Shown: piece after piece, positions 17,819 through 55,150 of the stretch
Position numbering within the stretch: position 1 is the stretch's first letter
Layout: each line of letters starts with the position of its first letter
Translations under genes and position numbers: made by a program
Source: an uncultured bacterium
GTDB taxonomy: Bacteria > Methylomirabilota > Methylomirabilia > Methylomirabilales > CSP1-5
NCBI GenBank assembly: GCA_964348275.1
Contig: CAYGBT010000003.1
Location: 10,819-74,818, forward strand
Direction: 5' to 3'
Length of the DNA: 64,000 nucleotides
Notes under the pieces: model-generated
Database searches by the model: none
What the model was told of the DNA's origin: nothing
The model's input: only the letters and a program-made list of their open reading frames with translations

Positions 17819-18263
17819 GGCCGGAGTGGGCCGGGTGGTCGCTTCGATCTCTGATCGGGGAGGAAAGTCCGGGCTCCGCAGGGCAGGGTGGTGGGTAACA
17901 CCCACCGGGGGTAACCCCAGGGAAAGTGCCACAGAAAATATACCGCCCCGCCGGTAGCCTTTGTTCTCTTTCTTCGAAAGAGGCTGTCCGCGGGGTAAGG
18001 GTGAAAAGGTGCGGTAAGAGCGCACCAGCAGTCCGGTGACGGGCTGGCTTGGCAAACCCCACCCGGAGCAAGGCCAAATAGGTTCCGCTTCCTGGTGGTC
18101 GCTCATCGAGCGAGGGCGAGGATGAGAGTGGCCCGCTCTCTTGCCCGAAAGGCAGGCGGAACGGGTAGGCCGCTAGAGTCCCAAAGTAATGCGGGACCCA
18201 GAGGAATGACCACCGTTCGCCTTCGGGCGAATACAGAACCCGGCTTATAGGCCCGCTCCGGCC
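17819..18263 (+). ncRNA. rnpB: RNase P RNA, bacterial type A
   Basis: Universal blocks GAGGAAAGTCCGGGCTCC, GGGAAAGTGCCACAGAAA, GGTAAGGGTGAAA-GGTGCGGTAAGAGCGCACC, CCCGGAGCAAGGCCAAATAGG, ACAGAACCCGGCTTAT; the 5' GGCCGGAGTGGGCC pairs with the 3' GGCCCGCTCCGGCC (P1). Confidence 0.93.
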
Positions 18264-25546: not shown

Positions 25547-26677
<1,131 letters not shown>

Positions 26678-26800
26678 GGCGCTGGCAGGCTAGGAGGCTA
26701 GTACGCTGGAACGCGAGGACGCCAAAAGGCCGTAAGAGTGTGATTGACTGGAGTCCATCCGAGCCTCCTAGCTTCCTAGCGTTCTAGCGTTTGAGGAGTG

Positions 26801-28267
26801 ATGATGCCCGAGCCTCTGAGAGCAAAAATTGTGGTAGCGGACGATGAGGAAAGTGTCCGCTGGACGCTGAAAAAGGCCCTCGAGCGGTCGGGGTACGCTG
26901 TGCTCACAGTCGCGGATGGGAAGGCAGCGGTGGAGACAGCGGAACGGGTCAGTGCCGATCTGGTCCTCATGGATATCAAGATGCCTACCGTGGATGGGCT
27001 TGAGGCCCTCTCCCTACTCCGCGAACGCCGTCCAGATACCATCGTGATCGTCATGACCGCGTTCGGCAGCCTCCAAGCGGCCGTGGAGGCCATGAAGCGG
27101 GGGGCGTACGACTATATCACCAAACCCTTTGATTTCGAGGAGCTCACTCTTCTCGTTCGCAGGGCCCTAGAGGTGAAGACGCTCACGAAGGAGCTGAACC
27201 GGCTCAAGGCCCAGCTGAGAGATCGCCAAGAGTTGGATGAGATCGTGGGGACGAGTCAGGGCATGCAAGTGGTCTTCAAGTTGGTGGGCCAAGTGGCGGA
27301 CAGTGGGGCAACCGTTCTCATCCAGGGAGAAAGCGGAACCGGCAAGGAGCTTATTGCCCAAGCAATTCACAAGAACAGCCCGAGGTCCCAAGGCCCCTTC
27401 GTGACGGTCAACTGTGCTGCCATTCCTAAGGACCTGCTCGAGAGCGAACTCTTTGGCCACGAGAAAGGGGCCTTTACCGGAGCCGTCGCCACCCGGCGCG
27501 GGAAATTCGAGCTGGCCGACAGCGGAACCATCTTTCTCGACGAGATTGGAGAGATGGATCCAGCGCTGCAGACCAAGATTCTTCGAGTCTTTGAGGAGCG
27601 GCGCTTCGAGCGGTTGGGAGGAGAAGTCCCTATCACCGCGGACGTCCGGATCCTTGCCGCCACCAATCGCGATCTTCCGACCCTGGTGACGCGAGGGATC
27701 TTTCGGGAAGATCTCTTCTACCGGCTGAATGTGGTGACCATTGCGCTCCCGCCCCTGAGGGAGCGTCAGGATGATATCCCGCTCTTGGTGGACCATTTCC
27801 TTCGCCTCTATGCGGGAGCAGACCACAAAGAGGTTGCGCCAGAAGCGCTCAACTGCCTTCTCCGGTACCATTGGCCGGGCAATGTTCGGGAACTGGAGAA
27901 TGTGATCAAGCGAGCCTGCCTTCTGGCCCGGACGCGTCTCATCCTTCCGGAGCATTTCTCTGAAGCCCTGCAGGCGGCGGCCAGCGTACCCCATGCTGAA
28001 GATTCCGCTAGCGTCCCGGGAGGACTCGGACGGGAGGTCCGCGTAGAGCTCAAACGCGTAGGTGGAGAGAAAGACGGACAGCTGTACGAGCATCTCCTCT
28101 CCCTGGTAGAGCGCCCCCTGCTACAAGCCGTGTTGGATCGGGCAGGGGGGAATCAACTCAAGGCGGCCCAGCTTCTCGGCATCAACCGGAACACCCTGCG
28201 AAAACGGATGCGGCAGCTTGGGATCTCAGGAAAGAGGGAATCCCCGGAGGGTAGCGACCCTTCCTGA
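26801..28267 (+). CDS. Sigma-54-dependent response regulator (NtrC family bEBP)
   Basis: Receiver domain (VADDEES...DIKMP), AAA+ with GESGTGKE and the GAFTGA loop (EKGAFTGA), C-terminal Fis-type HTH. Confidence 0.9.
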   Translation: MMPEPLRAKIVVADDEESVRWTLKKALERSGYAVLTVADGKAAVETAERVSADLVLMDIKMPTVDGLEALSLLRERRPDTIVIVMTAFGSLQAAVEAMKRGAYDYITKPFDFEELTLLVRRALEVKTLTKELNRLKAQLRDRQELDEIVGTSQGMQVVFKLVGQVADSGATVLIQGESGTGKELIAQAIHKNSPRSQGPFVTVNCAAIPKDLLESELFGHEKGAFTGAVATRRGKFELADSGTIFLDEIGEMDPALQTKILRVFEERRFERLGGEVPITADVRILAATNRDLPTLVTRGIFREDLFYRLNVVTIALPPLRERQDDIPLLVDHFLRLYAGADHKEVAPEALNCLLRYHWPGNVRELENVIKRACLLARTRLILPEHFSEALQAAASVPHAEDSASVPGGLGREVRVELKRVGGEKDGQLYEHLLSLVERPLLQAVLDRAGGNQLKAAQLLGINRNTLRKRMRQLGISGKRESPEGSDPS

Positions 28268-28395
28268 TCGCCCCAGTCGAAATCTGTAAAACCTTACGGA
28301 CCTCTGTATGAAACAAAAAAGAGAACCCGCCCCCTTCAGTCCTTCTGGTCTCCGGGAGAGGCCTACTTATGATGGGGGGTATCCCCCTGTCCTTT

Positions 28396-29094
28396 TTACA
28401 GCAGGGCCCGGAGTCGATCGGGAGACTTGAGGGTCAGGCGTCGGCCGTGCACCTCCAAGAGCCCTTCCCGCTGAAATTGGCTCAGAAGGCGCATGGCCGT
28501 CTCCGGGCTCAGACCGACCAACGCAGCAAGCTCCCCCCGACGTAGAGACAGATTGAGCATCGTTCCCTTTGATCCCGGCTGCCCGTAACGATCTGCGAGG
28601 TCCAAGAGCTGGGCCGCCATTCGCGTTCGTGCGTCGCTCAGGGCCACGTGGGTGAAGCGGACTTGGGTATCTATCAATACCTGGCACACGTGACGGAGGA
28701 TTGGGAGGAGGACTCGATCCCGCTTTTGGAGCAGTTCGAGAAAGGCCTCGCGCCTTACGAAGGCACTTTGACAGGTGTCGAGCGCTTCAGCGGTATTCGT
28801 GTAGGGTGCCCCGTCCAAGAGGGCTTCTTCCCCGCAGATCTCTCCGGGACCCACAATTCGCAGGATCTGCTGCCGCCCATTATTGGCCCCCCGGGAGAGT
28901 TTTACTCGACCCGAGCAGAGGATGTGGATGCCTAGGGCCGGCATCCCCTCGTGATACAGGATTTGTCGGGGCTGGTAAGTCCGGGTGTGGCGGATCCCTT
29001 TCGTGGCCTCGATCTCCTCGGGAGTGAGCTGGCTAATGAGGAGACACTTCTGTCTGGCTCCGCATTCAACACAGCCGTTCTCTTCCACTGTCAC
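28396..29094 (-). CDS. FNR-type Crp/Fnr family transcription regulator
   Basis: N-terminal C-x2-C-x5-C (CVECGARQKC), cNMP-binding-like beta-roll, C-terminal HTH (RGELAALVGLSPETAMRLL). Confidence 0.85.
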   Translation of the reverse strand: MTVEENGCVECGARQKCLLISQLTPEEIEATKGIRHTRTYQPRQILYHEGMPALGIHILCSGRVKLSRGANNGRQQILRIVGPGEICGEEALLDGAPYTNTAEALDTCQSAFVRREAFLELLQKRDRVLLPILRHVCQVLIDTQVRFTHVALSDARTRMAAQLLDLADRYGQPGSKGTMLNLSLRRGELAALVGLSPETAMRLLSQFQREGLLEVHGRRLTLKSPDRLRALL

Positions 29095-29138
29095 CTCCTT
29101 GGACCGCCGTTCCCCCTAAGCCTGAGTGGATGTGGGGG

Positions 29139-30260
29139 TCACTGCTGGTCTCCCGGGGATTTGCCCCCGTCCGGTTGGTAGACGCAGAGGGGTTCCTCCG
29201 CTAGATAGTCTCCGCTCGTTGCATAGGCTCGTGCCCGAGAACCTCCACAGATCCACCGAAACTCACACTGCCCGCATTTTCCCTTCAACCGGTCCATATC
29301 CCGGAGTTCGGCCAGCCAGGGAGAGTTTCGGTAGATTTCTGACAGGGGTTTCTCCCGCACGTTCCCGAGGAGGGGATAGGGGAGAAAGCCCGCGGGGTAG
29401 ACCTCCCCCTTGTGGGAGACGAAGATCACCCCATTTCCGTCTCTGACCCCAAAGCCCATTGTCTTTCCCAGTCTCTCGATATCATCGAGGGCCATGCCCT
29501 CCTCGAGCTTTCGTTGAATCCAGTGCCTTCGAAAATGTGGAGCCTCCACCGTACTTACATGGAAGGGTGCATCCCCGGAGATTGAGTAGATCCAGGTGAA
29601 AAGATGCTCCACGTCGTCCGCCGAAGGGAGTCCCAGCGTGGCTCCCCGACCCACCGGGACCAGAAGGAAGAGGCTCCATCGGCGGACGGGAGGGGAGGCT
29701 TCTTCCTGCAACAGGCGGTAGAGGGCGGGTAGATGGGGAAGGGTTTCACGAGTGACGGTGGTGTTCACCTGCACGGGGATGTTGGATTCCCGAGCCCACT
29801 GGAGGGCGTTCAAGGAGTGTTCGAACGTTCCGGGGACTCCCCGAAAGGTGTCGTGGACCTCTTGGTTAGGTCCATCCAGGCTGACCCCCATGGCGACCAC
29901 CCCCAGCCTCCGGAATTGGTGGACGGCGTCCCGAGTCAGGGTAGGGGTCGTGCTCGGGGTGATTCCGAGGGGTAAACGGATTTCCCGGGCGTACGCGATG
30001 AGCTCGAAGAGATCAGGCCGCTTCATGGGATCCCCGCCCGTGAAGATCATCATGCTCCCCATGGTCTTGACATCTCGCATCAGGCCTTTCGCTTCATCGG
30101 TGGTGAGCTCCAGGGGGTCTCGGTGGGGAATGGCCTCGGCCCGACAATGCTGACAGGCAAGATCACACGCAGTAGTCATCTCCCAGTAGACGTTGCGCGG
30201 GGCATCCAGATAGAGGTCTCGGGGATAGGTGAATCTCTCTTTGAACCCATCCTGGATCAC
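29139..30260 (-). CDS. Radical SAM enzyme with SPASM-type C-terminal domain
   Basis: Cx3Cx2C (CDLACQHC), GGDP SAM motif, C-terminal Cys cluster CGQCEFRWICGGSRARAY..PLC; GTG start with SD AGGAGA. Confidence 0.85.
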   Translation of the reverse strand: MIQDGFKERFTYPRDLYLDAPRNVYWEMTTACDLACQHCRAEAIPHRDPLELTTDEAKGLMRDVKTMGSMMIFTGGDPMKRPDLFELIAYAREIRLPLGITPSTTPTLTRDAVHQFRRLGVVAMGVSLDGPNQEVHDTFRGVPGTFEHSLNALQWARESNIPVQVNTTVTRETLPHLPALYRLLQEEASPPVRRWSLFLLVPVGRGATLGLPSADDVEHLFTWIYSISGDAPFHVSTVEAPHFRRHWIQRKLEEGMALDDIERLGKTMGFGVRDGNGVIFVSHKGEVYPAGFLPYPLLGNVREKPLSEIYRNSPWLAELRDMDRLKGKCGQCEFRWICGGSRARAYATSGDYLAEEPLCVYQPDGGKSPGDQQ

Positions 30261-30307
30261 GCGGATCTCCTGAGCGATGATCGTGCTTCCGGCTGCATGG
30301 GCGTTCT

Positions 30308-30514
30308 CTACCGTCGAAGCCGTCTATACTGCCGACACAGGATATGCTTCACAGTCGTACACCGGTTCCAGTATTCCCAGAAACCAGGGACCTTGGTGAA
30401 TCCAGAAGCGAGGTCCCGACAGTATCCCGGGATAACCCATTCCTGCGCGTCAGCCTGCCGCCAGAAATAGGGGCAATCTCTTTCGGGGAGTCCTCTTCGC
30501 ATCGGATCGGCCAT
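30308..30514 (-). CDS. Small Cys/Trp-rich protein (68 aa), family not recognised
   Basis: ATG preceded by AGGAAGG at 7 nt; 4 Cys, 4 Trp, basic tail; 47 nt upstream of the radical SAM gene and downstream of a sigma-54 promoter. Confidence 0.55.
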   Translation of the reverse strand: MADPMRRGLPERDCPYFWRQADAQEWVIPGYCRDLASGFTKVPGFWEYWNRCTTVKHILCRQYRRLRR

Positions 30515-30679: not shown

Positions 30680-30696
30680 AGCAATGGCAGTGCCAC
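30680..30696 (-). promoter_or_regulatory. Sigma-54 (-24/-12) promoter, copy 1
   Basis: Minus-strand TGTGGCACTGCCATTGCT = TGGCAC-N5-TTGCT, about 165 nt upstream of ATG 30514. Confidence 0.65.
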
Positions 30697-30802
30697 AATC
30701 TCCGCTGTGGGCCCGCTGAGGTGTTGATTATTTAATCTCTTAATTTTAAAGGACGAAAGACAAGTGTGGGTGGCGGCACATGACAGGATCTGAAATGGGA
30801 AC

Positions 30803-30920
30803 TGGGACAACCATGTCCCAGAGCAGCGTGTTTTCTGACGCAGAGCATGTCTGGACCATATTTTTTACAGGGAGATATCCCCTGGGGCAACTCTGCCACA
30901 TTGGGAAACGGCTTGCCCCA
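30803..30920 (-). promoter_or_regulatory. Putative enhancer (three dyads plus A-tract), copy 1
   Basis: Plus-strand TGGGACAACCATGTCCCA (30803-30820), TATTTTTTACAGG, TGGGGCAACTCTGCCACA (30883-30900), TTGGGAAACGGCTTGCCCCA (30901-30920); same order and spacing as at 42073-42191. Confidence 0.5.
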
Positions 30921-30968
30921 CTTGGTACGCCAGACATGTCCCTCGGCCGTGGTGACGTCTTTACCTTT

Positions 30969-32830: not shown

Positions 32831-33313
32831 TCAGGCTAAGGAATCTTTGCTCCTGAGGCGATCTTGGATCTCTTTGGCCAGCGCTGCCTGCAGCGTTTGG
32901 AATCGTCCACCAATGATACGGGCGGTGTTTTTCATGACAATGTAGCCCAGGCGAATATTTGTCTCACACAAGTGTTGAATATCAGCTTGGCTTATCTGCA
33001 ACACCTCAGAATCTTCTTTCGCGTACGCCGACAACGTGTATTTGTGGGGATGGGTCACCGCCGACCAACCAAACACTGCCCTTGGGACCTTTATTTCGAA
33101 GGGGATTTCTACCGTGGCACTGTAGTACGAGACTCTGGACCGAAGCTCAATCTCTCCCGCGCATACTAGAAACAGGGATGTGGCCTGTTCGCCCTCCTTG
33201 AAGATTTGTTCTCCCTTCTGGAACTTCTTGGTTTTGCACAGCTTTTTGATGGCCGCCAGGTCTTCCGGTCCCAGACCTTCAAAGATGCTGAATCTCACAA
33301 GTTGTTCTGTCAC
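32831..33313 (-). CDS. Stand-alone cyclic-nucleotide-binding domain protein
   Basis: 160-aa cNMP-binding beta-roll pattern (FKEGEQATSLFLVCAGEIEL). Confidence 0.75.
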   Translation of the reverse strand: MTEQLVRFSIFEGLGPEDLAAIKKLCKTKKFQKGEQIFKEGEQATSLFLVCAGEIELRSRVSYYSATVEIPFEIKVPRAVFGWSAVTHPHKYTLSAYAKEDSEVLQISQADIQHLCETNIRLGYIVMKNTARIIGGRFQTLQAALAKEIQDRLRSKDSLA

Positions 33314-33805: not shown

Positions 33806-35032
33806 TTACTTGCGCTTGCCCTTGAGCCCGTCCAGCTCAACCGATCCTCCCCCCATGTACAGCAGATAGGCAATCAGGTCGGCCATCTCCCCTCCCTTGA
33901 AGACCGGCCAGGCCATGTCCTGCTCCAGCATCATTTCTTCCATACTGGACGCGTGATTCCACATCGCAGTGATGACCTCCAGGGGGGTACCAAGGCCCGC
34001 CGCCGTCGCGAGATTCGGCCCCACAGTTTCGCGAACGCCCCCGAAGGAGTGACAGGAGACACACTGTTTCTCCACGATCACAACCCGCCCCCTTTGGGGG
34101 TCCGCCGCCGGGTCGATGAACTGGAAGAAGTAAAGGTAGTTAATAAGATCCGACATCTGTTTCGTGCTGAGAGAGGGCTCCTTGATCCCCATCTCAACCA
34201 TTTTCTCCCACATCTTGGGGCCGTGGTTCCACATCGCTCCGGCGATGCGCATGAGGCTTCCCGTGAGCGTGGTGCCGAGGTCTGGACCCACCTTGGCGCC
34301 GTGGCCTCGGATCGCGTGGCACTCGACGCACCGCTTCTCCCGGTACAGCTTCTCGCCCCGCTCAGGACTTCCCGGCGGGGCGTACACTCGCTCGAGGCCG
34401 CCAGCGACATCCCGGATATAGGCGAGGAGGTCTGGGATGTCATTCCCCTCAAAGGTGGGGCGCGACACGCCCATCTCCCGCATCGTCTCCGCCATCGCCT
34501 TCCCCTTCTTCCACAGGTCAGTCGTCAAAAAGAGGGGAGAAGCGTACCGGCCGTACTTGTCAAGCGCGGGGCCGATACTCCCGCCTCTCCCTCCCAAGGA
34601 GTGACAGGCCTCGCAGCCCTTTTGGCGGAAGAGGCGTGCGCCGAATGCCGGGTCTCCCGGAGGATCGAGGGAGTTTAGGTAGTACAGGAATGCGATGAGG
34701 CTTGCCATTTCCGAGGGCTCGAATGTGGGCCGGGAAACCCTTTTTTCTCGGAGGACCTGCTCCATTCCGGGGAAGTGGTTCCACATCACCCCGGCGATCT
34801 CCAACAGAGGACGGTTCAGGATCCCCCGGCCCAGCTCGGGCCCCGCGACTCCTCCCACTCCGGTGACCGCATGACACTGCAAACACCCTTTCTCGATGAA
34901 CAGTCGGCTTCCTTCAAGGGGATCACCCGGGAGGAGGGCCGAGAGGGCTCCATGGCCGCCAAAGGATGACGCAGGCACAATGCCAAATCCGACCAGTAAG
35001 GCGAGGCCGAACAACAGGGTTTTGACCTTCAT
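33806..35032 (-). CDS. Four-domain (tetraheme) class-I-type cytochrome c, paralogue 2
   Basis: Signal peptide MKVKTLLFGLALLVGFG; CLQCH, CEACH, CVECH, CVSCH, each followed by an (A)MWNH..M block; ATGA overlap with the upstream small gene. Confidence 0.85.
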   Translation of the reverse strand: MKVKTLLFGLALLVGFGIVPASSFGGHGALSALLPGDPLEGSRLFIEKGCLQCHAVTGVGGVAGPELGRGILNRPLLEIAGVMWNHFPGMEQVLREKRVSRPTFEPSEMASLIAFLYYLNSLDPPGDPAFGARLFRQKGCEACHSLGGRGGSIGPALDKYGRYASPLFLTTDLWKKGKAMAETMREMGVSRPTFEGNDIPDLLAYIRDVAGGLERVYAPPGSPERGEKLYREKRCVECHAIRGHGAKVGPDLGTTLTGSLMRIAGAMWNHGPKMWEKMVEMGIKEPSLSTKQMSDLINYLYFFQFIDPAADPQRGRVVIVEKQCVSCHSFGGVRETVGPNLATAAGLGTPLEVITAMWNHASSMEEMMLEQDMAWPVFKGGEMADLIAYLLYMGGGSVELDGLKGKRK

Positions 35033-35280
35033 GGCTCGCTCCGATCCGTGAGGAGCCCCCAGATGACGTAAAGGACCACGCCGAGGAGCACCAGAAAGAC
35101 CGGGATCGCCACTAACGAGATGCCGATAGAGGCAGAAGGGACGTCCCTGAGGTACCAGGCGGTGCGGATCAGGTGGATGATCCAGATCACGATCCCTCCG
35201 ACGAACAGGACAAAACCTCCCGCTATGGCCCACTGCATGATTCTCACGATTCGATCCGGCGCTGCATGCGGGCGATCCAT
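35029..35280 (-). CDS. Small two-TM membrane protein (83 aa)
   Basis: ATG 35280 lies 1 nt after the NrfD-like stop, with GGAGGG as SD; two hydrophobic helices; coupled to the downstream cytochrome. Confidence 0.5.
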   Translation of the reverse strand: MDRPHAAPDRIVRIMQWAIAGGFVLFVGGIVIWIIHLIRTAWYLRDVPSASIGISLVAIPVFLVLLGVVLYVIWGLLTDRSEP

Positions 35281-35281
35281 G

Positions 35282-36646
35282 TCACCCTCCTCCCTTGGCC
35301 GGGATGAATTCGGGCTCACCCGCTTCCGGGAGGTAGGTCAGGAGACGCTCCTCCACCTCTTTGATGCCTACCTCCCGCCCCTCCTCTATCTCCCAGATGG
35401 AGATGATGGGGAAGAGCTTGGTGAAGAGGAGATAAAAGAGGGCGAACAAGGCAAAGCTGGCCGCCGTTTCTCCCAGCTCTACCCACGTCGGCCAGTAGAT
35501 GCCCGCGGGGAATGGCAGCCGTGGGTACGACAGGGTGGGAACGACGATGATGAAGCGCTCAAGCCACATCCCCACCAGGACCGACAGGGACGCGGTCAGG
35601 ACTTTTCCGATGGTTTGCCCGTCGAGCCTCACCAGGCACAGGAGTGGGATGACGAAGTTGGTGAGGATCATCCCCCAGAAGAATGGCCAGAAGGGACCTG
35701 TGAACTTGGCCCAGAAGACCTTCATCTCCTCTGGATCGCCGCCATAGTAACCGGTCAGGTACTCGGTGAATGTGAAGTAGAACCAGAGGAGTGACATCAC
35801 GAGCAGGAGCTGTCCCAGGTACCTAAAATGAACCGGTCTGAGGTAGCTCTGAAGACCGTACATCTTTCTGAAAATGAGCATGGCCACGATGAGGGCGGCG
35901 ATGCCGGAGAAGATGGCCCCTACCACGAAGTACGGCCCGAAAATCGTCGAATGCCACATCGGCTGGAGCGTCATGGAGAAGACGAAAGAGACCACCGTAT
36001 GGACCGAGACGGCGATCGGGATCACGAGGACCGCCATGATGGCAATGGCGCGGTTGAGAACCTTATGCTGACGCTCCGTCCCCCGCCATCCCAGGGCCAA
36101 CACGGTATAAAAAAACTTTCGCTTTCCGAGACGGTCCCTGAGAATGGCGATATCCGGGATCATAGGGATCCACAGGTAGATGAGGCTGGCCGTCAGGTAG
36201 GCGCTGATACTGGTAGCGTCCCAGAGGAGGGGAGACTGGTAGCGGCCGTGATGGATGACGTTCATGGCCCGGTCAGGCCGACCCAGGTCCACCAGGATCT
36301 GTCCGGCGCCGATGAAGAGGACCATCACGGTGATCACCTCAGCCATCCGGGTGATGGGGCGCCGCCACTCGGCCTTCGAGAGGCGGAGGATGGCCGAGAT
36401 GAGCGTCCCCGCGTGGCTGATCCCGATGAAAAAGACAAAGTTGGTGACGTAAAAACCCCAGGAAACCGGCTGGTGGAGCCCGGTGACGCCCAGGCCTTCG
36501 TTGAGCTGGACCGAGTAGGCAAAGCCTCCCCAGAGGACAATGAGAAACAGGATGGCCACGGCCAAGTAGAAATTACGTCCCGTGTGCTCGATCGGAGCGA
36601 GGAGGATGGCATCTCGCATGTCAGTGGTATGTGCCACGAACTTCAC
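35282..36646 (-). CDS. NrfD/PsrC-type integral membrane quinone-interacting subunit (ActC/QrcD-like)
   Basis: Polytopic protein aligning with the ActC paralogue at 46141-47466 from its N-terminus. GTG start overlaps the Fe-S subunit stop (GTGA). Confidence 0.85.
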   Translation of the reverse strand: MKFVAHTTDMRDAILLAPIEHTGRNFYLAVAILFLIVLWGGFAYSVQLNEGLGVTGLHQPVSWGFYVTNFVFFIGISHAGTLISAILRLSKAEWRRPITRMAEVITVMVLFIGAGQILVDLGRPDRAMNVIHHGRYQSPLLWDATSISAYLTASLIYLWIPMIPDIAILRDRLGKRKFFYTVLALGWRGTERQHKVLNRAIAIMAVLVIPIAVSVHTVVSFVFSMTLQPMWHSTIFGPYFVVGAIFSGIAALIVAMLIFRKMYGLQSYLRPVHFRYLGQLLLVMSLLWFYFTFTEYLTGYYGGDPEEMKVFWAKFTGPFWPFFWGMILTNFVIPLLCLVRLDGQTIGKVLTASLSVLVGMWLERFIIVVPTLSYPRLPFPAGIYWPTWVELGETAASFALFALFYLLFTKLFPIISIWEIEEGREVGIKEVEERLLTYLPEAGEPEFIPAKGGG

Positions 36647-37311
36647 CCTTTCAGGTAGATCACCTTGGGCTTTGTCCCGAGCTCTTCCTGGAGCCTCATG
36701 GCCCGTGGGCTCCGGGCGAGCTTTGACACCTCGCTGCCAGGATCGGAGAAATCCCCAAAGACGATGGCTCGGGCGGGACACGCCTCAGCACAGGCGGGAA
36801 CGTATTCCCCCGGCTCGATCCCCCGTTCTTCGGCGCGGGACCGTGCGCGCACCTTCTGGAGACGATGGTGGCAGAAGGTGCATTTCTCCACCACGCCGTT
36901 TGAGCGGACGGAGACGTCTGGGTTCTGCGCTGGGCCCTCTTTCTGGTAAGTGTGCCAGTTGAAGTACTTGGCGTTATACGGGCAAGCGGCCATGCAGAAG
37001 CGACAGCCGATACAGCGGGCGTAAATCTGGGCGACGATCCCCTCCGGGTTCCGGTAGGTGGCGTAGACGGGACAGACCTTCGTGCAGGGAGGATCGTCGC
37101 AGTGGAGACACGGCCTTGGCAGGAACCGGATCTTCCCGTCAGGGTGTTCTTCATCCGCTTCGGTGAGGACCTGCATCCAACTGATGGTCCGCCCTCTGCT
37201 GGCCTCCTTGGCTCCAACGGCCGGGATGTTGTTCTCGGCCTTGCAGGCCATGACGCAGGCCTGGCATCCGGTGCAGCGATCCAGATCGATCACCATCCCC
37301 CAGAGTGCCAT
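36643..37311 (-). CDS. 4x[4Fe-4S] ferredoxin-type subunit (ActB2/QrcC/PsrB-like)
   Basis: CTGCQACVMACK, CLHCDDPPCTKVCP, CIGCRFCMAACP, CTFCHHR...CAEACP cluster motifs. Confidence 0.9.
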   Translation of the reverse strand: MALWGMVIDLDRCTGCQACVMACKAENNIPAVGAKEASRGRTISWMQVLTEADEEHPDGKIRFLPRPCLHCDDPPCTKVCPVYATYRNPEGIVAQIYARCIGCRFCMAACPYNAKYFNWHTYQKEGPAQNPDVSVRSNGVVEKCTFCHHRLQKVRARSRAEERGIEPGEYVPACAEACPARAIVFGDFSDPGSEVSKLARSPRAMRLQEELGTKPKVIYLKG

Positions 37312-37312
37312 G

Positions 37313-39733
37313 TCACGCCCTCCGTATCCTGACCCTGGTGGTGTTGAAGAGGCCGAAGCCCTTGACAGGGTCCAGCTCGCTCGAGATCAGGTCGTTGGGA
37401 TTGGGACCATCGCCCCCGAAAAGGGGCATAAGGACGACGCCGGGAAGCGTGCCATCATAGAGCTTGGCCTGAAGCCTGATTCGCCCCTTGGAAGATTCCA
37501 CCCAGACCCAGTCGCCGTCGTTGATGGCCAGTTTCTCGGCCGTCTCTGGGTGAACCTCGATCCACTTCTTCCAGGATGCTTCGACGTGGACCGCGGGCTG
37601 CTCCAGGAGCCACGGCTGGTTCTTTCCGCCCCCGACGGGCCGGGTCACAAGCCGGTAAGTGATCAAGCGGAGGGAGGATACTTCCGGCTCCTGTTCCTGA
37701 GCGGAAGGGATCGTAACGGCGGGAAGAAAGAGCAGGTCTCCCCGATCCCACCCCCCGATGGCGCTCACAAAGCGACCTTTTTTCCCCTCGCGCTTCACGG
37801 CCTCATCCACCCACCGCTTGAAGCGGCTCGAGTAAAACTCGAACTTCCCAGACGAGGTCGTAAGGAGGGCTTTCCGGCCAACTGGGAGGCCTGTAGGGTC
37901 CCACCATACTCCCCGCTTGAGCAAAGCGTTCCAGAACTCGTCGTAGTTCTTGAACTCGGGGATCCAGTATCCCTGGCGCTCCAGGATTTTCCTGAGCGAT
38001 TCCTCGGCATGGATCGAGACCACGTATCCCCGCCCTGCCTCGTAGAGTCCTCGGGCTCCTTCGTGAAGGAGGGCCTCGAAGGTGTTCCACGAAAGGCTTT
38101 CGGCAATGGTGCCGCCCAGAGCCTTCGAGATCTGGAGCAGCACGTCACCCGTGTTGCGGGTTTGGTGGAGGGGGGTCGCAGCAGGCCGGGCCAGGCTGAA
38201 GCAGGTGAAGCCAGCCAAATGTGTGACCTGGTCGTCCTGCCACCGCTCCAGATAGGGGTGGTCTGGCAGGATGAGATCGGCCAAAGCGCTGGATTCATCC
38301 AGAAATGGAGAGAAGCTAACAACGAAAGGAACCTGGTCCATCGCTCTGGCAAAAGCTTCTTTAGCCGGATGGTTGGCCAGCGGATTGGTGGCGAAGAGGA
38401 AGAGAGCGTTGATGGGATACGGATCCCCGCTCAGAATCTTTTCTGGTACAGCCTGGGAAGCATCGGAGACCAGGAAGTATTCCCCCAGCCCCGCCCCATC
38501 GATCCTCGGTTTGGCAAGTGCATCCTTTGCGGCCTTGTCTCGCTTAACCGGACGAAGCGGGGCCAGCGGCAGCTCGCCCTGGATCAGGAGGCCGCCGTGG
38601 ACGCCGATGTTTCCAATGAGGGCATTGAGGCTGTGGATGGCCATCCGGGTGTGAAGATCGTCAGGGCCGTACGATGGTCCCCGCTCGCCGATAACAAGGG
38701 CCGGCTTCATCGTGGCAAGATCCCGGCCGATCTCGAGGATAACATCTGCGGGGACGCCGGTGGTCTGCGAAACGGTGAACAGGCCATACTCACTGAGCAC
38801 CAGCTTCTTGAACCCCGTGTGGTGCTGACCGGTTCTGTCCACCCAGTCCTCAAAGCCGAACGTGTGTGTGTCCAAGAACTCTTGGTCAATGAGCCGTTCC
38901 CGGATCAGCACATTGGCGATCCCTAGGGCGAGGATCCCGTCCGTGCCGGGGATGATTGGGACCCACCGATCTGCCTTGGCCGCAGTCTGGGAGCGTCTGG
39001 CATCCACGTGAACGAGCCGGCCCCTCGGACGGTCGCCCGCCCCGCGCAAGCCGGCGAAGGCAAGGGAGGAATGCACCGGACCCATCCAGGATTCCAGAAG
39101 ACCGGCCCCGAAGGAGAGGATCAGTCGGGTCTCAGCGATGTCATAGCCCAGCGGGCTCGTCACTCCCTGCATCAGGTAGTGGGCGAGGGCAGGTCTCTCT
39201 GGCGAGAAGCAGCGGACCCGGATGTAGTTTGGACTCCCGTACGCCTCGGCGAAGCGTTTCCAGAGCGTGTCCCGATAGCCGCGGTACTGTCCCCCCAGGA
39301 TCGCCACGGTGTGAGACAGGCCCTGATCGCGAAGCGCAGCAAGGCGCGTTGTTACCAACCGTAGAGCCTCCTCCCACTCAATCGGACGCAAGCGCCCCTT
39401 CTTTTCATCCCGCACCATCGGCCCCTTCAGGCGGTGGGGGTCGTAGAGGAGCTGGAGTCCCCCAAACGCCTTTGGGCAGAGGGCTCCCCGATTGACGGGA
39501 TGAAGAGGGTTCCCTGAAATTCCCACCGCTTCCCCGTCCAGCGTCCGGACCAGGAGACCACAACCTCCCGGACACTGCTGACAGATGGAGGGGACGACGA
39601 CCTCCTCTGGGGTGGCCCAACGTTCAAAGTCCTGGCGTGCCTGGTCGGCCCTGGTCAGTCGGCCTCTCACCAGGGCGGCGGCTCCGGCAGTTCCACCCAC
39701 AGCCTGTAGGAATCTACGTCGCGTGACTCGCAT
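37313..39733 (-). CDS. Tat-exported Mo-bisPGD-fold subunit (ActB1/QrcB/PsrA-like)
   Basis: MRVTRRRFLQAVGG twin-arginine signal; N-terminal CQQCPGGCG..(x)..C Fe-S motif; molybdopterin-oxidoreductase-like domains. Confidence 0.85.
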   Translation of the reverse strand: MRVTRRRFLQAVGGTAGAAALVRGRLTRADQARQDFERWATPEEVVVPSICQQCPGGCGLLVRTLDGEAVGISGNPLHPVNRGALCPKAFGGLQLLYDPHRLKGPMVRDEKKGRLRPIEWEEALRLVTTRLAALRDQGLSHTVAILGGQYRGYRDTLWKRFAEAYGSPNYIRVRCFSPERPALAHYLMQGVTSPLGYDIAETRLILSFGAGLLESWMGPVHSSLAFAGLRGAGDRPRGRLVHVDARRSQTAAKADRWVPIIPGTDGILALGIANVLIRERLIDQEFLDTHTFGFEDWVDRTGQHHTGFKKLVLSEYGLFTVSQTTGVPADVILEIGRDLATMKPALVIGERGPSYGPDDLHTRMAIHSLNALIGNIGVHGGLLIQGELPLAPLRPVKRDKAAKDALAKPRIDGAGLGEYFLVSDASQAVPEKILSGDPYPINALFLFATNPLANHPAKEAFARAMDQVPFVVSFSPFLDESSALADLILPDHPYLERWQDDQVTHLAGFTCFSLARPAATPLHQTRNTGDVLLQISKALGGTIAESLSWNTFEALLHEGARGLYEAGRGYVVSIHAEESLRKILERQGYWIPEFKNYDEFWNALLKRGVWWDPTGLPVGRKALLTTSSGKFEFYSSRFKRWVDEAVKREGKKGRFVSAIGGWDRGDLLFLPAVTIPSAQEQEPEVSSLRLITYRLVTRPVGGGKNQPWLLEQPAVHVEASWKKWIEVHPETAEKLAINDGDWVWVESSKGRIRLQAKLYDGTLPGVVLMPLFGGDGPNPNDLISSELDPVKGFGLFNTTRVRIRRA

Positions 39734-39741
39734 CGCTTCCC

Positions 39742-40296
39742 TTACCGATGACAGGCGTTGCAATCAGTCAAGATTGCTCGCTGCGCCGCCGCCTCCGGTT
39801 TCACTTCTCCTGCTTCGTTTCCTCTGGACCACTCCCACTTCTCGTGACAGCGGATGCAGTCGTCCATGGTGAGGATCTTGAGGGCGCGCGCGGGGGGGCG
39901 GTCAAGGGTCTCCATCGGTCCATGGCAGGTCTGGCACTTCACCTTTGCCACCACCACGTGCGTGCGGTGAGGGAAGAAAACGTGAGAGGGGAGTCGCCAG
40001 ACGCGCTTCCAGGGGATCTCCTCGCCCTTTTCTTCGAAGGCTTGGAGCCTCTTCAATTCCTGGCTCTCGGGCTCCCCCCCCGAATGGCAGCCAAGGCACA
40101 ACGTGGTGGGAGGACGGCCTGCGACGACATCCTTCTCCGCTCGTTGGTGGCAGTTCGTGCACGTCAGGCCCACCTCCAGGTGGGTCTTGTGGGGGAACTC
40201 GATCGGCTGCCTGACAGCGGGCTCCGCCAACAGACGCCATGCTCCCCACGCGAAGAGGCCCAGGGCGAGCAGACCGACCGCAGCGAGCCACCTCAT
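39742..40296 (-). CDS. Pentaheme c-type cytochrome (ActA/NrfB-like)
   Basis: TM/signal anchor MRWLAAVGLLALGLFAW; CTNCH, CLGCH, CQTCH, CIRCH, CNACH. Confidence 0.8.
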   Translation of the reverse strand: MRWLAAVGLLALGLFAWGAWRLLAEPAVRQPIEFPHKTHLEVGLTCTNCHQRAEKDVVAGRPPTTLCLGCHSGGEPESQELKRLQAFEEKGEEIPWKRVWRLPSHVFFPHRTHVVVAKVKCQTCHGPMETLDRPPARALKILTMDDCIRCHEKWEWSRGNEAGEVKPEAAAQRAILTDCNACHR

Positions 40297-40483
40297 GGTG
40301 TTTCCCCGCGCTCGGCCCCTTGCGTTTGTCCCATAGCAGCCGGCGCCCCGCATCGGCCGTCGGCATGGTGTCCGTGAAGCCTTGATGGCACAGCCACCCT
40401 GACTGTGGTGAGAGGGGGTATCCAGCGTTTCTCCGTAGCGCCGCCCCCGTTGGTGTTCGTGGGGAAAAAACCCCGCAGGCCCT

Positions 40484-41827
40484 TCACCGGTTCTGCCTCA
40501 GCGTCTGGAGGTAAGCAACGAGGTCAGCCATCTCGTCTTGGCGGAACTGGGGCCAGGTGACCCCTTTAACCTCGGTTACCCGTTCCATGACCAAGGCGTG
40601 GTTCCACAATATTGAGATGACTGCGGCAGGCGAGACAAGGTGCTTCACCCGGGCGAGGTCGCCCGCGACCTTCCCGCCCTTCCCACGGACCGAATGGCAC
40701 TGCAAACACCCCTTGTCCTTCACCAGCTTCCGTCCCTTGCGGGGTTCGGTCGGTCCGCCGAAGTATTGGACAGAGTAAAGGTAGGCGACAAGGTCCGCCA
40801 TCTCTTCCGCCCGGAGTTGTGGGATGGAGATTCGCTTGGCCTTCATCGCCTTTATCATCGCCGGGGTCTTGTTCCACATCGCTGTCGCAAACTCAGTAAG
40901 GCTCCGGTGAACTCCTCGCTCGCCAAGGTCAGGCCCGAGCCGACCGCCCCGTCTTCCAATGCTGTGGCACACACGGCAGCCCTTCTCCACGAACAGCTCG
41001 CGCCCTTCGTCGGCGCGGCCGGGCAGGACATACAGCGGTTCCTCCTCCGGCTCCGGCGAGGCGGATTTGAGGTAGGCGATCAGATCGATGAGCTCCGTTC
41101 CCTTAAATGTGGGTCGCTCTATTCCTCTTGCCCGCATGGCCTCGGCCATGGCGGGGCCGTGGTTCCACATCGCCGTCGCGACATAGATCGGCGAGCCATA
41201 CTGCTTGAGCAAGTCGAGGTTAGGGCCGATCACGCCGCCAGTTCCACCCACCTGGTGGCAGATCACGCACTGCTTCTCGATGAAGATTTCTCTACCGGTC
41301 TCGGGATTCCCAGCGGGATCAAAGTAGTTGAGGGTATACAGAAAGGCGATCAGATCGCCGGTCTCCTGCGGACTGATGTGAGGGTGGGAGATCCCGAGCT
41401 CACGCATCTTTTCGGCCATGCGGGGAAAGTGGTTCCACATGGCCGCGGCAAGATCGTAGAGCGAGCGGGGACGCGAGATACGGCCGAGATCGGGCCCGAC
41501 CTTCCCGCCCTTCCCGTTCACGGCGTGACACTCGGTACATCCCTTAGCCCCGAAGACCCGCGACCCGACAACCGGGTTGTGGGTCGGGCTGAGAAGTTGC
41601 TGGGCGAATGCCAGTCCCAGGGACCAAAGGAGCAGAAGGACAACAGATATCAAGGAGAAGAAATAAGCTGGAGGAAAAGTGATAACGCCGCCCCGGGCAG
41701 CGCCAGAGCGAGGGATCTCGGCCAGATCCGGATGGCCGAGAAATTTCGTTTCGCAACAAGAGGAAGGGGTTCTCCCTCTCGCCAGCGATTCCCAGGCGGG
41801 TTGTGTGCGCTGTCGTCTGATCCTCAT
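40484..41827 (-). CDS. Four-domain (tetraheme) class-I-type cytochrome c, paralogue 1 (start uncertain)
   Basis: CTECH, CVICH, CRVCH, CLQCH with MWNH blocks. The 562-aa ORF start (42172) lies inside a regulatory module, so ATG 41827 or a later codon before the TM segment SLISVVLLLLW is more likely. Confidence 0.75.
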   Translation of the reverse strand: MRIRRQRTQPAWESLARGRTPSSCCETKFLGHPDLAEIPRSGAARGGVITFPPAYFFSLISVVLLLLWSLGLAFAQQLLSPTHNPVVGSRVFGAKGCTECHAVNGKGGKVGPDLGRISRPRSLYDLAAAMWNHFPRMAEKMRELGISHPHISPQETGDLIAFLYTLNYFDPAGNPETGREIFIEKQCVICHQVGGTGGVIGPNLDLLKQYGSPIYVATAMWNHGPAMAEAMRARGIERPTFKGTELIDLIAYLKSASPEPEEEPLYVLPGRADEGRELFVEKGCRVCHSIGRRGGRLGPDLGERGVHRSLTEFATAMWNKTPAMIKAMKAKRISIPQLRAEEMADLVAYLYSVQYFGGPTEPRKGRKLVKDKGCLQCHSVRGKGGKVAGDLARVKHLVSPAAVISILWNHALVMERVTEVKGVTWPQFRQDEMADLVAYLQTLRQNR

Positions 41828-41951
41828 CCGAGTTCGAATGATCGAGAGCTCCCCTGCTAGCGCAGTGGTTTGAGGAGGAGAAGAGCAAAGAACCTCGCCG
41901 TTTGTAATCGTTACATGCGCAGATCCGGTGGCAGACTCGGGGTCCGTGGAA

Positions 41952-41968
41952 GCAAAGGCGGTGCCACA
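41952..41968 (-). promoter_or_regulatory. Sigma-54 (-24/-12) promoter, copy 2
   Basis: Minus-strand TGTGGCACCGCCTTTGCT = TGGCAC-N5-TTGCT, about 125 nt upstream of ATG 41827. Confidence 0.65.
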
Positions 41969-42072
41969 TACTGCCTGGCAGGGCAAAGGAGGGTCGTCGC
42001 GACGTAACACATTGTCTTTAAAGGAGTACTTCAATCGGAGACGAGCCGACCAGAGAGCGGTGGAAGACGTCA

Positions 42073-42191
42073 TTGGGGCAAATACGCCCCAGAGCAGGCC
42101 CTCATCTGACGGCGGGCAGGTTTGTGCCTTATTTTTTACAGGAAGATACCGTTTGGGGCAACTGTGCCACACCCGACAAGGCCTTGTCCCA
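42073..42191 (-). promoter_or_regulatory. Putative enhancer (three dyads plus A-tract), copy 2
   Basis: Plus-strand TGGGGCAAATACGCCCCA (42073-42090), TATTTTTTACAGG, TGGGGCAACTGTGCCACA (42154-42171), CCCGACAAGGCCTTGTCCCA (42172-42191, containing the perfect palindrome GACAAGGCCTTGTC). Confidence 0.5.
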
Positions 42192-42436
42192 CCCGATACC
42201 CTTTCTTAATGAGTCGAAGGGGTTGTGCCACCTCACGGCGTTCCTGAGAAGCTGTGCAAGCCCTAGACCGAACAGGAGACGGTCGGGGAGGATAAAGGTT
42301 GTGGTCTCGCCGCGCGTACTGTCCGGGCAGCACGCTCAGCTCGCGCCGTGGCTGGCGAAAATGATTCATCCGTTAGGATGAAGTGTTGGACGTAACAATC
42401 CCGGGTCTGACGGCGGCCATGCACCAAGAGGCTCGA

Positions 42437-43040: not shown

Positions 43041-43709
43041 TTACGGATTAGGCTTTTTGAAGGTCTTGAGATACTCCATGACATCCTGAATCTGCTGCTG
43101 CGATAACGTGGTCCTCCACTCGGGCATATAGGGGGAGCCGTGAAATCCTTTGGCCCCCCCCATGAAGATGGCTCGGGAGATTTCCTCTTCCCGCCCCTCG
43201 ATGACAAATTCCTCGGAAGTGAAATCCCTTGGCGTCACACCGACCAAGTTCTTGGCGGCGGGCCCTTGTCCATCCCCTCGGGATCCATGACACGCTTGGC
43301 AGAAGGTGTTGTAAATATCCTTGCCCGCCAGGATGCTTACATGTTTGCCCGGCACTGCGAGGGTCCGGATATACGCAATGGCATCGCGAAGCGCCTCTTC
43401 CTTCAGCGACTCAATGACAGTTGCCATGGGCATATGCGCAGTGTCGGGACGCCCCTTTCTTTGTGTGAGCGTGGAAACGATCTGCTGATTAGACCTGCCT
43501 CCGAGGACTGCGGGGTTGGTAAAATCGGGTAGCGGTGTAGCGATATATTGGGCAGCCGGGCCATCTCCCCGGCCGTAACGACCGTGACATGTCCAGCAAA
43601 AGGTCATATATACCTCTTCCCCCTGGGGAACCACCGCTTGGGCCTGTGGCTGAGCGGCAACCCCGCCTGCCATCAAGAGGAGTCCGAGAATCGCCATCCC
43701 CGCTCTCAT
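43041..43709 (-). CDS. Diheme cytochrome c (c4-like)
   Basis: Signal peptide; CWTCHGRYGRGDG and CQACHGSRGDG class-I motifs. Confidence 0.8.
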   Translation of the reverse strand: MRAGMAILGLLLMAGGVAAQPQAQAVVPQGEEVYMTFCWTCHGRYGRGDGPAAQYIATPLPDFTNPAVLGGRSNQQIVSTLTQRKGRPDTAHMPMATVIESLKEEALRDAIAYIRTLAVPGKHVSILAGKDIYNTFCQACHGSRGDGQGPAAKNLVGVTPRDFTSEEFVIEGREEEISRAIFMGGAKGFHGSPYMPEWRTTLSQQQIQDVMEYLKTFKKPNP

Positions 43710-43718
43710 TTCGCTCCC

Positions 43719-44219
43719 TCACTTCGCCTGCACGTGCCGAATGAAATTGACGATGTCCCAACGCTCCCGGCGTGAAAGGGCGTCCCCCTGACCAGGCATG
43801 AGGGCACCCCCATTCCGGATGGTACCATACATGAACCCGTCAGTTCGTTGCCGGAAAATCTCCAGGGTGAGGTCGGGCGGAGGAACAAATTTGGTCGCGA
43901 CAGGCCCATCCCCCTTCCCATCAGGGCCGTGGCACAGGGCGCAGTAGATCTGAAAGAGCCGCTTTCCGTTTTCGATGGACGCGGCAGTCGGCTGCACAGG
44001 ATTGCGCAACTTCTCTGATGCTTCGATCCGGTCCATGCGCGGCTCTTTTCCTTGCCTCGGGATTGAGCCAGGCGGGGGGAGCCGCGGGTCCTCCTGAGGT
44101 CGGATGGAGGGCTGTTTCTCCATATCGGTGCTCCAGGGCCATCCATGGGCAAGGCTTACCCCGATGAGCACGAGGCCCACTGCCGTCGCCAGGGACCGGA
44201 AGAGCTCTCTGACGGCCAT
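43719..44219 (-). CDS. actE: Monoheme cytochrome c subunit of ACIII (ActE-like)
   Basis: Start placed at MAVRELFRSLATAVGLVLIG (signal/anchor); single CALCHGPDGKGDG site. Confidence 0.7.
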   Translation of the reverse strand: MAVRELFRSLATAVGLVLIGVSLAHGWPWSTDMEKQPSIRPQEDPRLPPPGSIPRQGKEPRMDRIEASEKLRNPVQPTAASIENGKRLFQIYCALCHGPDGKGDGPVATKFVPPPDLTLEIFRQRTDGFMYGTIRNGGALMPGQGDALSRRERWDIVNFIRHVQAK

Positions 44220-44298
44220 CCTCTTCTCACGCCAGAGGACGCGCCGGCTTCCAGGTCTGTCCCTGGAACAGGTGGGACTGGCGTGGATGCTGCCGGCC

Positions 44299-45582: not shown

Positions 45583-46139
45583 TACGCCTCCTTCACCGGG
45601 TGATCCGCCTGCTCTCCAGCGCGGTGCACCTCCTCGGCCCCCGCGCTTTCGAGCAGTCGACTGACCGTGTCGAAATCCTTTGTCTCACAACGGACAAAGA
45701 GACCAAATCGGTCCTCCGAGAACCGGGGATCGTAGGCTGGGACAACATGTACGCGCGGCAGGCGGGCATTGAGCAGCATCCCACCGAGCGTCATGAGCCC
45801 GCCGAAAAGGATTGTCAGTTCAAAGACGATAATCAGGAAGGGGGGCATCGAGACGATCGGTTTGCCACCGGTCATGATGCCACCGGCGATGATCGGGTAA
45901 AGCTTCGAGGTATGGATGGTAAGAAACAACCCCGTGGCGCCTCCCAGCAGACAGCCAATCAGGGTGAAGACGCGCACGGGGCTAGGCGGCTTCTCCAGCG
46001 CCTCGTCGATGGCGTGGTGGGGAACCGGAGACAGCGCCTGAAGGTTCCGGTAGCCGGCTTGACGCAGTCGTTCGATGGCCTCAAGCAGGCTGTCCAGGTG
46101 GCGAAAACTCCCGACAATCCCTCCGGACGGTCGAGCCAT
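45582..46139 (-). CDS. actD: ACIII subunit ActD (DUF3341-like)
   Basis: 185 aa with a soluble N-domain plus two TM helices, positioned directly after ActC. Confidence 0.75.
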   Translation of the reverse strand: MARPSGGIVGSFRHLDSLLEAIERLRQAGYRNLQALSPVPHHAIDEALEKPPSPVRVFTLIGCLLGGATGLFLTIHTSKLYPIIAGGIMTGGKPIVSMPPFLIIVFELTILFGGLMTLGGMLLNARLPRVHVVPAYDPRFSEDRFGLFVRCETKDFDTVSRLLESAGAEEVHRAGEQADHPVKEA

Positions 46140-46140
46140 C

Positions 46141-50391: not shown

Positions 50392-50444
50392 TACCGTCCG
50401 ATGTCTGAAGTCCGCCTCTCTGAGCCCTCAACCCTGAACTATTT

Positions 50445-55149: not shown

Positions 55150-55150
55150 C

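Follow-up and report, generated by a model that had tools for sequence, protein, structure and literature searches.

Organization of the locus

The 64-kb stretch of DNA analyzed here as a whole (contig CAYGBT010000003.1 of an uncultured bacterium; hereafter the window, numbered from its first letter) contains three adjacent minus-strand genes. They encode a small protein with four cysteine residues, a radical S-adenosylmethionine enzyme (rSAM) and a regulator of the CRP/FNR family, and may form a single sigma-54-dependent operon in a bacterium of the Candidatus Methylomirabilis group. The closest genome match was a Candidatus Methylomirabilis metagenome-assembled genome, in which the rSAM is 78% identical, and the database names of other relatives were consistent with this affiliation. 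A preliminary description of this DNA, made from the sequence alone, had reported the same trio, and the existence, coordinates and sequences of the three genes were confirmed:

30308–30514, minus strand: small open reading frame (ORF), 68 amino acids (aa), four Cys, four Trp, pI 9.6
29139–30260, minus strand: TIGR04053-family rSAM, AhbD-like, 373 aa, containing CDLACQHC
28396–29094, minus strand: CRP/FNR-family regulator, 44 nt beyond the rSAM gene

The small ORF is preceded by a Shine-Dalgarno-like GGAAGG located 7 nt before its ATG, and the rSAM start lies 47 nt past its stop codon. No Rfam elements or tRNAs were found in the trio region.

Family and cysteine content of the rSAM enzyme

The preliminary description had proposed hidden Markov model (HMM) searches for both the small protein and the enzyme; these assigned the enzyme to a family and returned no match in Pfam or NCBIfam for the small protein. 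The rSAM matched TIGR04053 (NCBIfam) with 429.6 bits against a cutoff of 395 (E 1.1e-128; residues 19–363 aligned to positions 5–366 of the 366-position model) and PF04055 with 83.2 bits. Besides TIGR04053, full-length alignments were obtained only with the tetrapyrrole enzymes AhbD (TIGR04545; 302 bits, residues 24–363 to positions 2–339 of 339), NirJ2 (193 bits), NirJ (172 bits) and AhbC (169 bits). AhbD is the radical SAM coproheme decarboxylase (heme b synthase) of the siroheme-dependent pathway. The mycofactocin, PqqE, sactipeptide and other peptide maturases matched only the N-terminal core, approximately residues 18–240.

The enzyme contains only seven cysteines, namely C32/C36/C39 (CX3CX2C) and C329/C332/C338/C359 (CX2CX5CX20C). 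All seven were invariant in 19 homologues, and no other cysteine was conserved. The C-terminal motif, in the form CX2CX5CX20-38C, is found in all AhbDs and is the sole auxiliary site in the AhbDs of non-methanogenic archaea (PMC10452713). The substrate-proximal cysteines of auxiliary cluster I (AuxI) are missing: the "PC" position is occupied by the invariant Ala290 and there is no cysteine at +4 after CX2CX5C. A full SPASM maturase has seven or eight C-terminal cysteines and two auxiliary clusters, and four C-terminal cysteines were counted here. The SPASM-type C-terminal cluster noticed previously is thus present in part: the enzyme has a single C-terminal auxiliary-cluster site, and its SPASM-type C-terminus is incomplete.

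Only 31 residues precede the radical SAM motif, and there is no N-terminal peptide-recognition domain. No PqqD-like or RRE match was found in the enzyme, and the operon contains no such gene and no peptidase or exporter gene. Among solved structures, the top sequence match was the decarboxylase BlsE. The AlphaFold model of the enzyme (pLDDT 77.5) had PqqE, SuiB, BlsE, SkfB, CteB and anSME as Foldseek neighbors, a generic SPASM/Twitch set that cannot separate peptide from small-molecule substrates; SuiB is also the top match for AhbD models according to the AhbD authors (PMC10452713). The mean column identity across the Methylomirabilales and Gemmatimonadota homologues was 77%, a value easier to reconcile with a universal substrate than with a peptide confined to one lineage.

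The small four-cysteine protein

The small ORF is a genuine gene and not a chance ORF, because it is conserved in frame, evolves with a dN/dS of 0.1–0.35 and has homologues at E-values down to 1e-24. The dN/dS range was obtained from pairwise comparisons of the core, in which synonymous sites were near saturation, and indicates purifying selection. The protein has 68 aa in the window and about 85 aa in most relatives, and has an Arg-rich basic tail, with a pI of 9.6–10.3.

A word-indexed homology search with the single small protein returned only the query itself. When 1.8 billion representative proteins were searched exhaustively with phmmer, the result was 8 clusters at E <= 1e-10 and weaker matches that retained the same four cysteines; weak matches to the large proteins P0130, P0131 and P0136 were rejected as spurious, these being unrelated repeat/adhesin proteins. 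A profile search of 5.8 billion proteins produced 38 clusters at 90% identity, all labelled "hypothetical" and none with a Pfam domain. Neither the small protein of the window nor any of the 37 family members gave a match in profile searches of Pfam, NCBIfam and PDB. No DNA-binding or known regulatory domain was detected. Whereas the rSAM and the regulator belong to known families, the family of the small protein, with about 38 clusters, is undescribed.

The family falls into two subfamilies, between which the identity is only about 30%. Subfamily 1 carries the database label Candidatus Methylomirabilis, and the high-GC contigs of subfamily 2 are perhaps, as a guess, of Methylomirabilota origin. 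Residues C14, P15, P43, C52, C60 and R64 are invariant across both subfamilies, and C32 is kept in 36 of 37 sequences. The motif Cys-Pro-(Tyr/Phe)-(Leu/Phe) at the first cysteine is invariant, and many members also have Cys-Pro at the fourth. The rSAM-linked subfamily keeps an aromatic-rich core, FWEYWNRC, in place of which subfamily 2 has IEEYRALC, so that the Trp residues are not conserved in the family as a whole.

Modeling with AlphaFold (alignment of 37 sequences) led to a pLDDT of 48.6 with no confident fold, a model too poor for a fold search or for analysis of the cysteine geometry. In locus L003 (GCA_046758505.1, JBHIAH010000011.1; 3963–4238) a homologue overlaps the rSAM start, yet it has no gene in the returned gene set; the family is therefore probably under-annotated.

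Coupling to the rSAM gene and the in-frame stop codon

The proposal in the preliminary description depended on conservation of the small ORF beside the enzyme in other genomes. It was found directly upstream of the rSAM gene in all 15 Methylomirabilis-type loci, which comprise the twin contig of the window, two genome loci retrieved through the rSAM and 12 metagenome loci retrieved through the small ORF. On contigs of sufficient length, the CRP/FNR gene follows the rSAM gene. In most of the 15 loci, the TGA of the small ORF overlaps the rSAM start codon by 4 nt (GTGA or ATGA). Such a stop/start overlap is the classic arrangement for translational coupling. Most relatives of the small protein end in ...EARSSLRRSA.

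The 47-nt gap is peculiar to the window and corresponds to the following feature:

30257–30310, minus strand: in-frame TAG (30308–30310) followed by a cut-off tail of 16 in-frame codons, RTPMQPEARSSLRRSA, and TGA

The TAG is codon 69, at which the relatives have a sense codon for Q, S or W. The tail is the C-terminal one that members of the family normally carry, and its 16 codons are conserved. Its TGA overlaps the GTG start of the rSAM gene (GTGA) in the window too, and it holds the rSAM ribosome-binding site AGGAG. Since the tail is still in frame and ends in the GTGA overlap, the gap is best read as a truncation allele or an assembly error. The TAG would be a nonsense allele or an assembly or sequence error, and with it both the tail and the translational coupling are lost; all four cysteines are retained in the 68-aa form. 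The twin Logan contig (L001) has the same TAG, but it may derive from the same reads.

Distribution of the two partners

A co-occurrence analysis, also suggested previously, gave a divided result: the pairing held in the 15 Methylomirabilis-type loci, but each partner was also found without the other. In Gemmatimonadota and in further Methylomirabilota-like contigs, the small ORF is missing beside rSAM orthologues that are 69–77% identical, of the same length and with the same seven cysteines. When loci L004, L005, L026, L027 and L028 were searched with the HMM in six frames within 5 kb on either side of the gene, no homologue of the small ORF was revealed. In L029, which has a Gemmatimonadota-type neighborhood, no small-ORF gene was called within 8-kb flanks; this result is based on gene calls only, with no six-frame search. 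The Gemmatimonadota rSAM genes have PriA, HNH, TatA and YjbQ as neighbors.

Conversely, in the loci examined the small proteins of subfamily 2 never adjoin an rSAM. In one lineage (P0134) the small ORF is accompanied by a divergent gene of the CRP family and by a gene for a cytochrome c, and no rSAM lies nearby. In another lineage, the neighbors are SBP_bac_3, a PF14407 "Frankia_peptide" gene, 72-aa proteins and sigma-54 activators. Thus, since the rSAM and the small protein occur independently, their pairing is lineage-specific, though tight where it is present, and neither partner generally needs the other.

Some further observations were made in these loci. The neighborhood of subfamily 2, which contains several small ORFs, is conserved in L020 (3263–5423), L022 (1077–5503) and L024 (2718–5363), at a GC content of 66–71%; it includes the PF14407 gene, a 72-aa membrane-like protein and SBP_bac_3, with sigma-54 activators in L022 and L024. 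The PF14407, SBP_bac_3 and 72-aa genes have no counterpart in the window. Loci L006 (small protein, no rSAM) and L026 (rSAM, no small protein) come from the same metagenome, but their origin from one organism was rejected because the GC contents differ (70.6% vs. 62.8%). In L026, a Methylomirabilota-like contig, an unrelated ORF of 85 aa (6153–6410, plus strand), with Trp, Cys and an FCPLE motif, lies 58 nt downstream of the 77%-identical rSAM; its 3' end runs into a perfect match to the sigma-54 promoter, and it may not be a real gene.

The FNR-type regulator

The preliminary description had recognized an FNR-type cysteine pattern in the regulator, and this holds: C8-x2-C11-x5-C17 is present together with C107, as in the FNR-type ligand pattern. 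The protein has a cyclic nucleotide monophosphate (cNMP)-binding fold (PF00027) and a Crp-type helix-turn-helix (PF13545), and its residues 8–230 align to positions 20–241 of the Fnr model. The Fnr subfamily score was 71.8 against a cutoff of 228, which makes the regulator FNR-like and not an Fnr orthologue. No FNR box (TTGAT-N4-ATCAA) was found near the operon.

Sigma-54 promoter and duplicated enhancer

The region upstream of the small ORF contains the following elements:

30681–30695, minus strand: sigma-54 promoter −24/−12, TGGCACTGCCATTGC, a perfect TGGCAC-N5-TTGC located 167 nt upstream of the small ORF ATG
30721–30750, minus strand: AT-rich stretch between enhancer and promoter, resembling the integration host factor (IHF) consensus ATCAA-N4-TT
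30803–30921, minus strand: enhancer (upstream activating sequence) module with TGGGACATGGTTGTCCCA at 30803–30820, TGTGGCAGAGTTGCCCCA at 30883–30900 and GTGGGGCAAG at 30912–30921

The promoter is one of three perfect sigma-54 matches in the whole window. It is invariant or differs by one base in the orthologous loci, and it was invariant in five aligned loci. Conserved inverted repeats, among them TGGGACATGGTTGTCCCA and TGTGGCAGAGTTGCCCCA, lie 110–230 nt upstream of the promoter, and the enhancer module is conserved in L002, L003, L013 and L014. The AT-rich stretch may be an IHF site.

A second module of the same composition is located within the window:

41952–42200, minus strand: enhancer, IHF-like stretch and sigma-54 promoter (promoter at 41952–41966; TGTGGCACAGTTGCCCCA at 42154–42171)

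Downstream of it come a gene for cytochrome c and an operon resembling alternative complex III (ACIII), which encodes a c7-type cytochrome, a molybdopterin-like subunit, a 4Fe-4S subunit, an NrfD subunit and a tetraheme cytochrome c. Only two copies of the enhancer module were found in the window, and none of 100 shuffles gave two matches. The enhancer shared with a cytochrome/quinone-complex operon, as proposed previously, is therefore borne out at the sequence level. Together, the two modules appear to define a small regulon that joins the trio operon with the cytochrome c/ACIII-like operon.

The genes downstream of the trio are as follows:

25547–26677, plus strand: PAS histidine kinase, convergent with the trio
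26798–28267, plus strand: NtrC-type sigma-54 activator, convergent with the trio
28371–28391, strand not assigned: GC-rich, terminator-like hairpin between the convergent NtrC and FNR genes

The trio had been described as lying behind a sigma-54 module. This is correct as regards the promoter at 30681–30695, but the kinase and activator genes converge on the trio instead of preceding it. The adjacent histidine kinase and NtrC-type protein are probably the activator pair for both enhancers.

The third perfect sigma-54 match, TGGCACGATCCTTGC (4543–4557, minus strand), does not have the shared enhancer motif. It is located where an ORF for a TIGR02266-domain protein begins, beside glnA and glnE.

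Respiratory and other surroundings

A large heme-rich respiratory island occupies positions 33806–60742 of the minus strand and includes the following complexes:

54478–60742, minus strand: Nxr/Nar-like molybdoenzyme, FeS subunit, EB_dh-type heme subunit and NarJ-like chaperone
51447–53608, minus strand: heme-copper oxidase subunits II and I
43041–50948, minus strand: canonical ACIII with ActD
33806–42172, minus strand: second ACIII-like complex

A stand-alone cNMP-binding protein of 160 aa (32831–33313, minus strand) was found inside the cytochrome cluster, and a GAF-adenylate/guanylate cyclase is encoded at 12462–13622 on the plus strand. Together they hint at a cyclic-nucleotide input to CRP-family regulators. 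In addition, the window contains an RNase P RNA of bacterial class A (17823–18263, plus strand; 313 bits).

Proposed function and alternative explanations

The full-length alignments, the single auxiliary-cluster site, the invariant cysteines of the small protein and the shared enhancer allow us to propose an rSAM for a heme-type tetrapyrrole that is encoded with an FNR-type regulator and a lineage-specific metal- or heme-binding accessory protein, and is co-regulated with respiratory cytochromes; we give this proposal about an even chance of being correct as a whole. As a member of the AhbD/NirJ tetrapyrrole clade, the enzyme would most likely carry out SAM-derived radical chemistry on a heme-type tetrapyrrole, a substrate that we infer from the family relationships. 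The favored reaction would be the oxygen-independent decarboxylation of both coproheme propionates to give heme b, as in AhbD, with the single C-terminal [4Fe-4S] cluster passing electrons on. The genes for AhbD occur in organisms that do not have the rest of the siroheme-dependent pathway, in which the protein was proposed to be an anaerobic coproheme decarboxylase (PMC13564367).

Four invariant cysteines in a cytoplasmic protein suggest a metal centre, and the small protein would most likely bind Fe-S, Zn or heme. It would probably serve the rSAM as an accessory, for instance as an electron partner, heme acceptor or sensor. A role in electron transfer or heme acceptance would fit the question, raised in the AhbD literature, of the external electron acceptor of AhbD (PMC10452713). 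The third gene product would be an FNR-type [4Fe-4S] oxygen sensor. The adjacent NtrC-type activator would probably switch on both the trio and the cytochrome c/ACIII-like operon via the duplicated enhancers, and the supply of heme could thereby be tied to the building of anaerobic respiratory cytochromes.

Several points weigh against this proposal. The AhbD score of 302 bits is under the NCBIfam cutoff of 500, and TIGR04053 itself has no characterized member. No heme-biosynthesis gene adjoins the rSAM in any examined locus. The AhbD homologue Gms cross-links archaeal lipids, a non-heme substrate (PMC11214058). The fold neighbors of the rSAM include the peptide maturases PqqE, SuiB, SkfB and CteB; an unfolded substrate peptide would likewise be compatible with the low confidence of the small-protein model, and tight translational coupling is also expected of a substrate-enzyme pair. 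Finally, metal or heme binding by the small protein is something we infer from its cysteines.

An unlikely alternative is that the rSAM acts on another non-peptide substrate (a different tetrapyrrole step, a lipid or a cofactor), the small protein being independent and merely co-transcribed. The uncharacterized state of TIGR04053, the score under the AhbD cutoff and the lipid substrate of Gms (PMC11214058) are consistent with it, as are the Gemmatimonadota contexts (PriA, HNH, TatA, YjbQ), which have no heme link. However, the enzyme has no Gms-type COG4001 domain, being 373 aa long with its radical SAM motif already at residue 32, and AhbD is its closest characterized family by a wide margin. 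The co-regulation with cytochrome operons and the stop/start overlap also speak against this explanation, the latter against chance co-transcription in particular. The preliminary description had itself mentioned a NirJ/AhbD-like enzyme beside an unrelated ORF as an alternative. The enzyme is indeed closer to this description, but the ORF cannot be called unrelated, as it is coupled to the rSAM gene in most relatives.

A regulatory role for the small protein, which would then sense redox state or heme within the FNR/sigma-54 circuit, for instance as a partner of the CRP/FNR regulator, and would not be a helper of the rSAM, is rather improbable. The distant homologue P0134 would fit such a role, being encoded divergently beside genes for a CRP-family regulator and a cytochrome c, with no rSAM nearby, and other distant homologues are found near sigma-54 activators. 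The Arg-rich basic tail (pI 9.6–10.3) and the Cys-Pro-(Tyr/Phe)-(Leu/Phe) motif point the same way; the motif resembles heme regulatory motifs, a likeness that we treat as a lead only. But a CRP gene adjoins the small ORF in that one lineage only, the other subfamily-2 loci having none, and the coupling seen in Methylomirabilis joins the small ORF to the rSAM and not to the regulator. The lack of a detected DNA-binding or known regulatory domain also argues against this role.

We also consider it quite unlikely that the rSAM uses the small protein as its substrate, installing Cys-based cross-links in it or turning it into a peptide-derived redox cofactor, with a product perhaps destined for the cytochrome complex. 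This was the favored explanation in the preliminary description, which drew an analogy with the Cys/Trp chemistry of QhpC. It would account for the position of the ORF immediately upstream of the rSAM gene, coupled to it, in all 15 Methylomirabilis-type loci, for the four invariant cysteines and the FWEYWNRC core of the rSAM-linked subfamily, and for the absence of a confident fold; the structural neighbors PqqE, SuiB, SkfB, CteB and anSME are in line with it as well. However, the full-length alignments place the enzyme with TIGR04053 and the tetrapyrrole enzymes only, and the AuxI cysteines, which are substrate-adjacent in sactisynthases, are missing (Ala290; no +4 Cys). The operon has no RRE/PqqD-type domain or gene, peptidase or exporter. 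The 69–77% identical orthologues have no small ORF within 5–8 kb, the sister subfamily of the small protein is never beside an rSAM and does not conserve the Trp residues, and 38 clusters of the small protein (90% identity) stand against thousands of rSAM homologues. Because of the enzyme clade, the missing AuxI, the lack of a recognition element and the independent phyletic distributions, the QhpC-like chemistry is disfavored, and the small protein is probably not a substrate of the rSAM, a helper being more likely.

A joint proposal, in which the mini-protein is a dedicated partner of an AhbD-type rSAM, either as a cross-linked or cofactor-forming substrate or as a Cys-Pro heme acceptor that signals to the FNR/sigma-54 system, seems doubtful to us. 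In its heme-acceptor variant, which is included in the same low estimate, the protein would take heme b directly from the anaerobic heme synthase and report heme status to the circuit that controls the cytochrome operons.

Significance

Little is understood of how heme is made anaerobically outside the classical siroheme pathway. Methylomirabilis, a nitrite-dependent methane oxidizer, relies on many cytochromes. AhbD-like genes are found in many bacteria without the rest of the pathway (PMC13564367), and their activity and electron partners have not been established. A four-cysteine protein coupled to an AhbD-like enzyme would be a testable candidate for the missing partner, whether an electron acceptor or donor or a heme acceptor. 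In addition, the duplicated sigma-54 enhancer would link the trio operon to the ACIII-like cytochrome complex as a small regulon. If the small protein were a substrate after all, peptide modification would extend to the tetrapyrrole branch of the rSAM enzymes.

Comparison with known systems

Like the locus studied here, the QhpC/QhpD, PqqA/PqqE, MftA/MftC and sactipeptide systems have a small Cys-rich ORF upstream of a SPASM/Twitch rSAM of similar fold. They differ in that the rSAM of the window has no AuxI cysteines, recognition domain or recognition partner, the similarity being that of the rSAM core; moreover, unlike in these systems, the window-type enzyme and the small protein are each widely found without the other. 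The likeness of the small protein to heme regulatory motif proteins amounts to four residues, and its other invariant cysteines suggest a Cys4 metal site.

Gms (GMGT synthase) is, like the rSAM of the window, an AhbD-like SPASM/Twitch enzyme, and it shows that this clade is not restricted to heme. Its defining features are a COG4001 lipid-binding domain at the N-terminus, roughly 100 aa long, and a chain of 400 aa or more (PMC11214058), neither of which the window enzyme has. NirJ, NirJ1, NirJ2 and AhbC belong to the same clade as the rSAM, with full-length or two-part alignments of 153–193 bits. However, these scores are far under the cutoffs of 500–650 bits, and no heme d1 (nir) genes are located beside the rSAM.

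AhbD (TIGR04545) shares with the enzyme a full-length alignment, the CX3CX2C and C-terminal CX2CX5CX20-38C motifs and the absence of an extra N-terminal domain, and the AhbDs of non-methanogenic archaea also have one auxiliary-cluster site only. The differences are the score under the 500-bit cutoff, the placement in the separate, uncharacterized TIGR04053 and the absence of ahbA, ahbB and ahbC nearby. A coupled four-Cys mini-protein was not found reported for AhbD in AhbD papers and reviews. Neither ahbA, ahbB or ahbC nor genes of the coproporphyrin pathway were recognized in the 64 kb of the window or in nine related loci. Literature searches for TIGR04053, or for Methylomirabilis together with heme or radical SAM, returned nothing. 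Other TIGR04053 proteins, for example those of Gemmatimonadota, are 69–77% identical to the enzyme, with the same seven cysteines and the same length. Their genes are solitary, with neither small ORF nor FNR gene nor sigma-54 promoter context. Methylomirabilis may have added a coupled four-Cys mini-protein and an FNR-type regulator to the rSAM operon.

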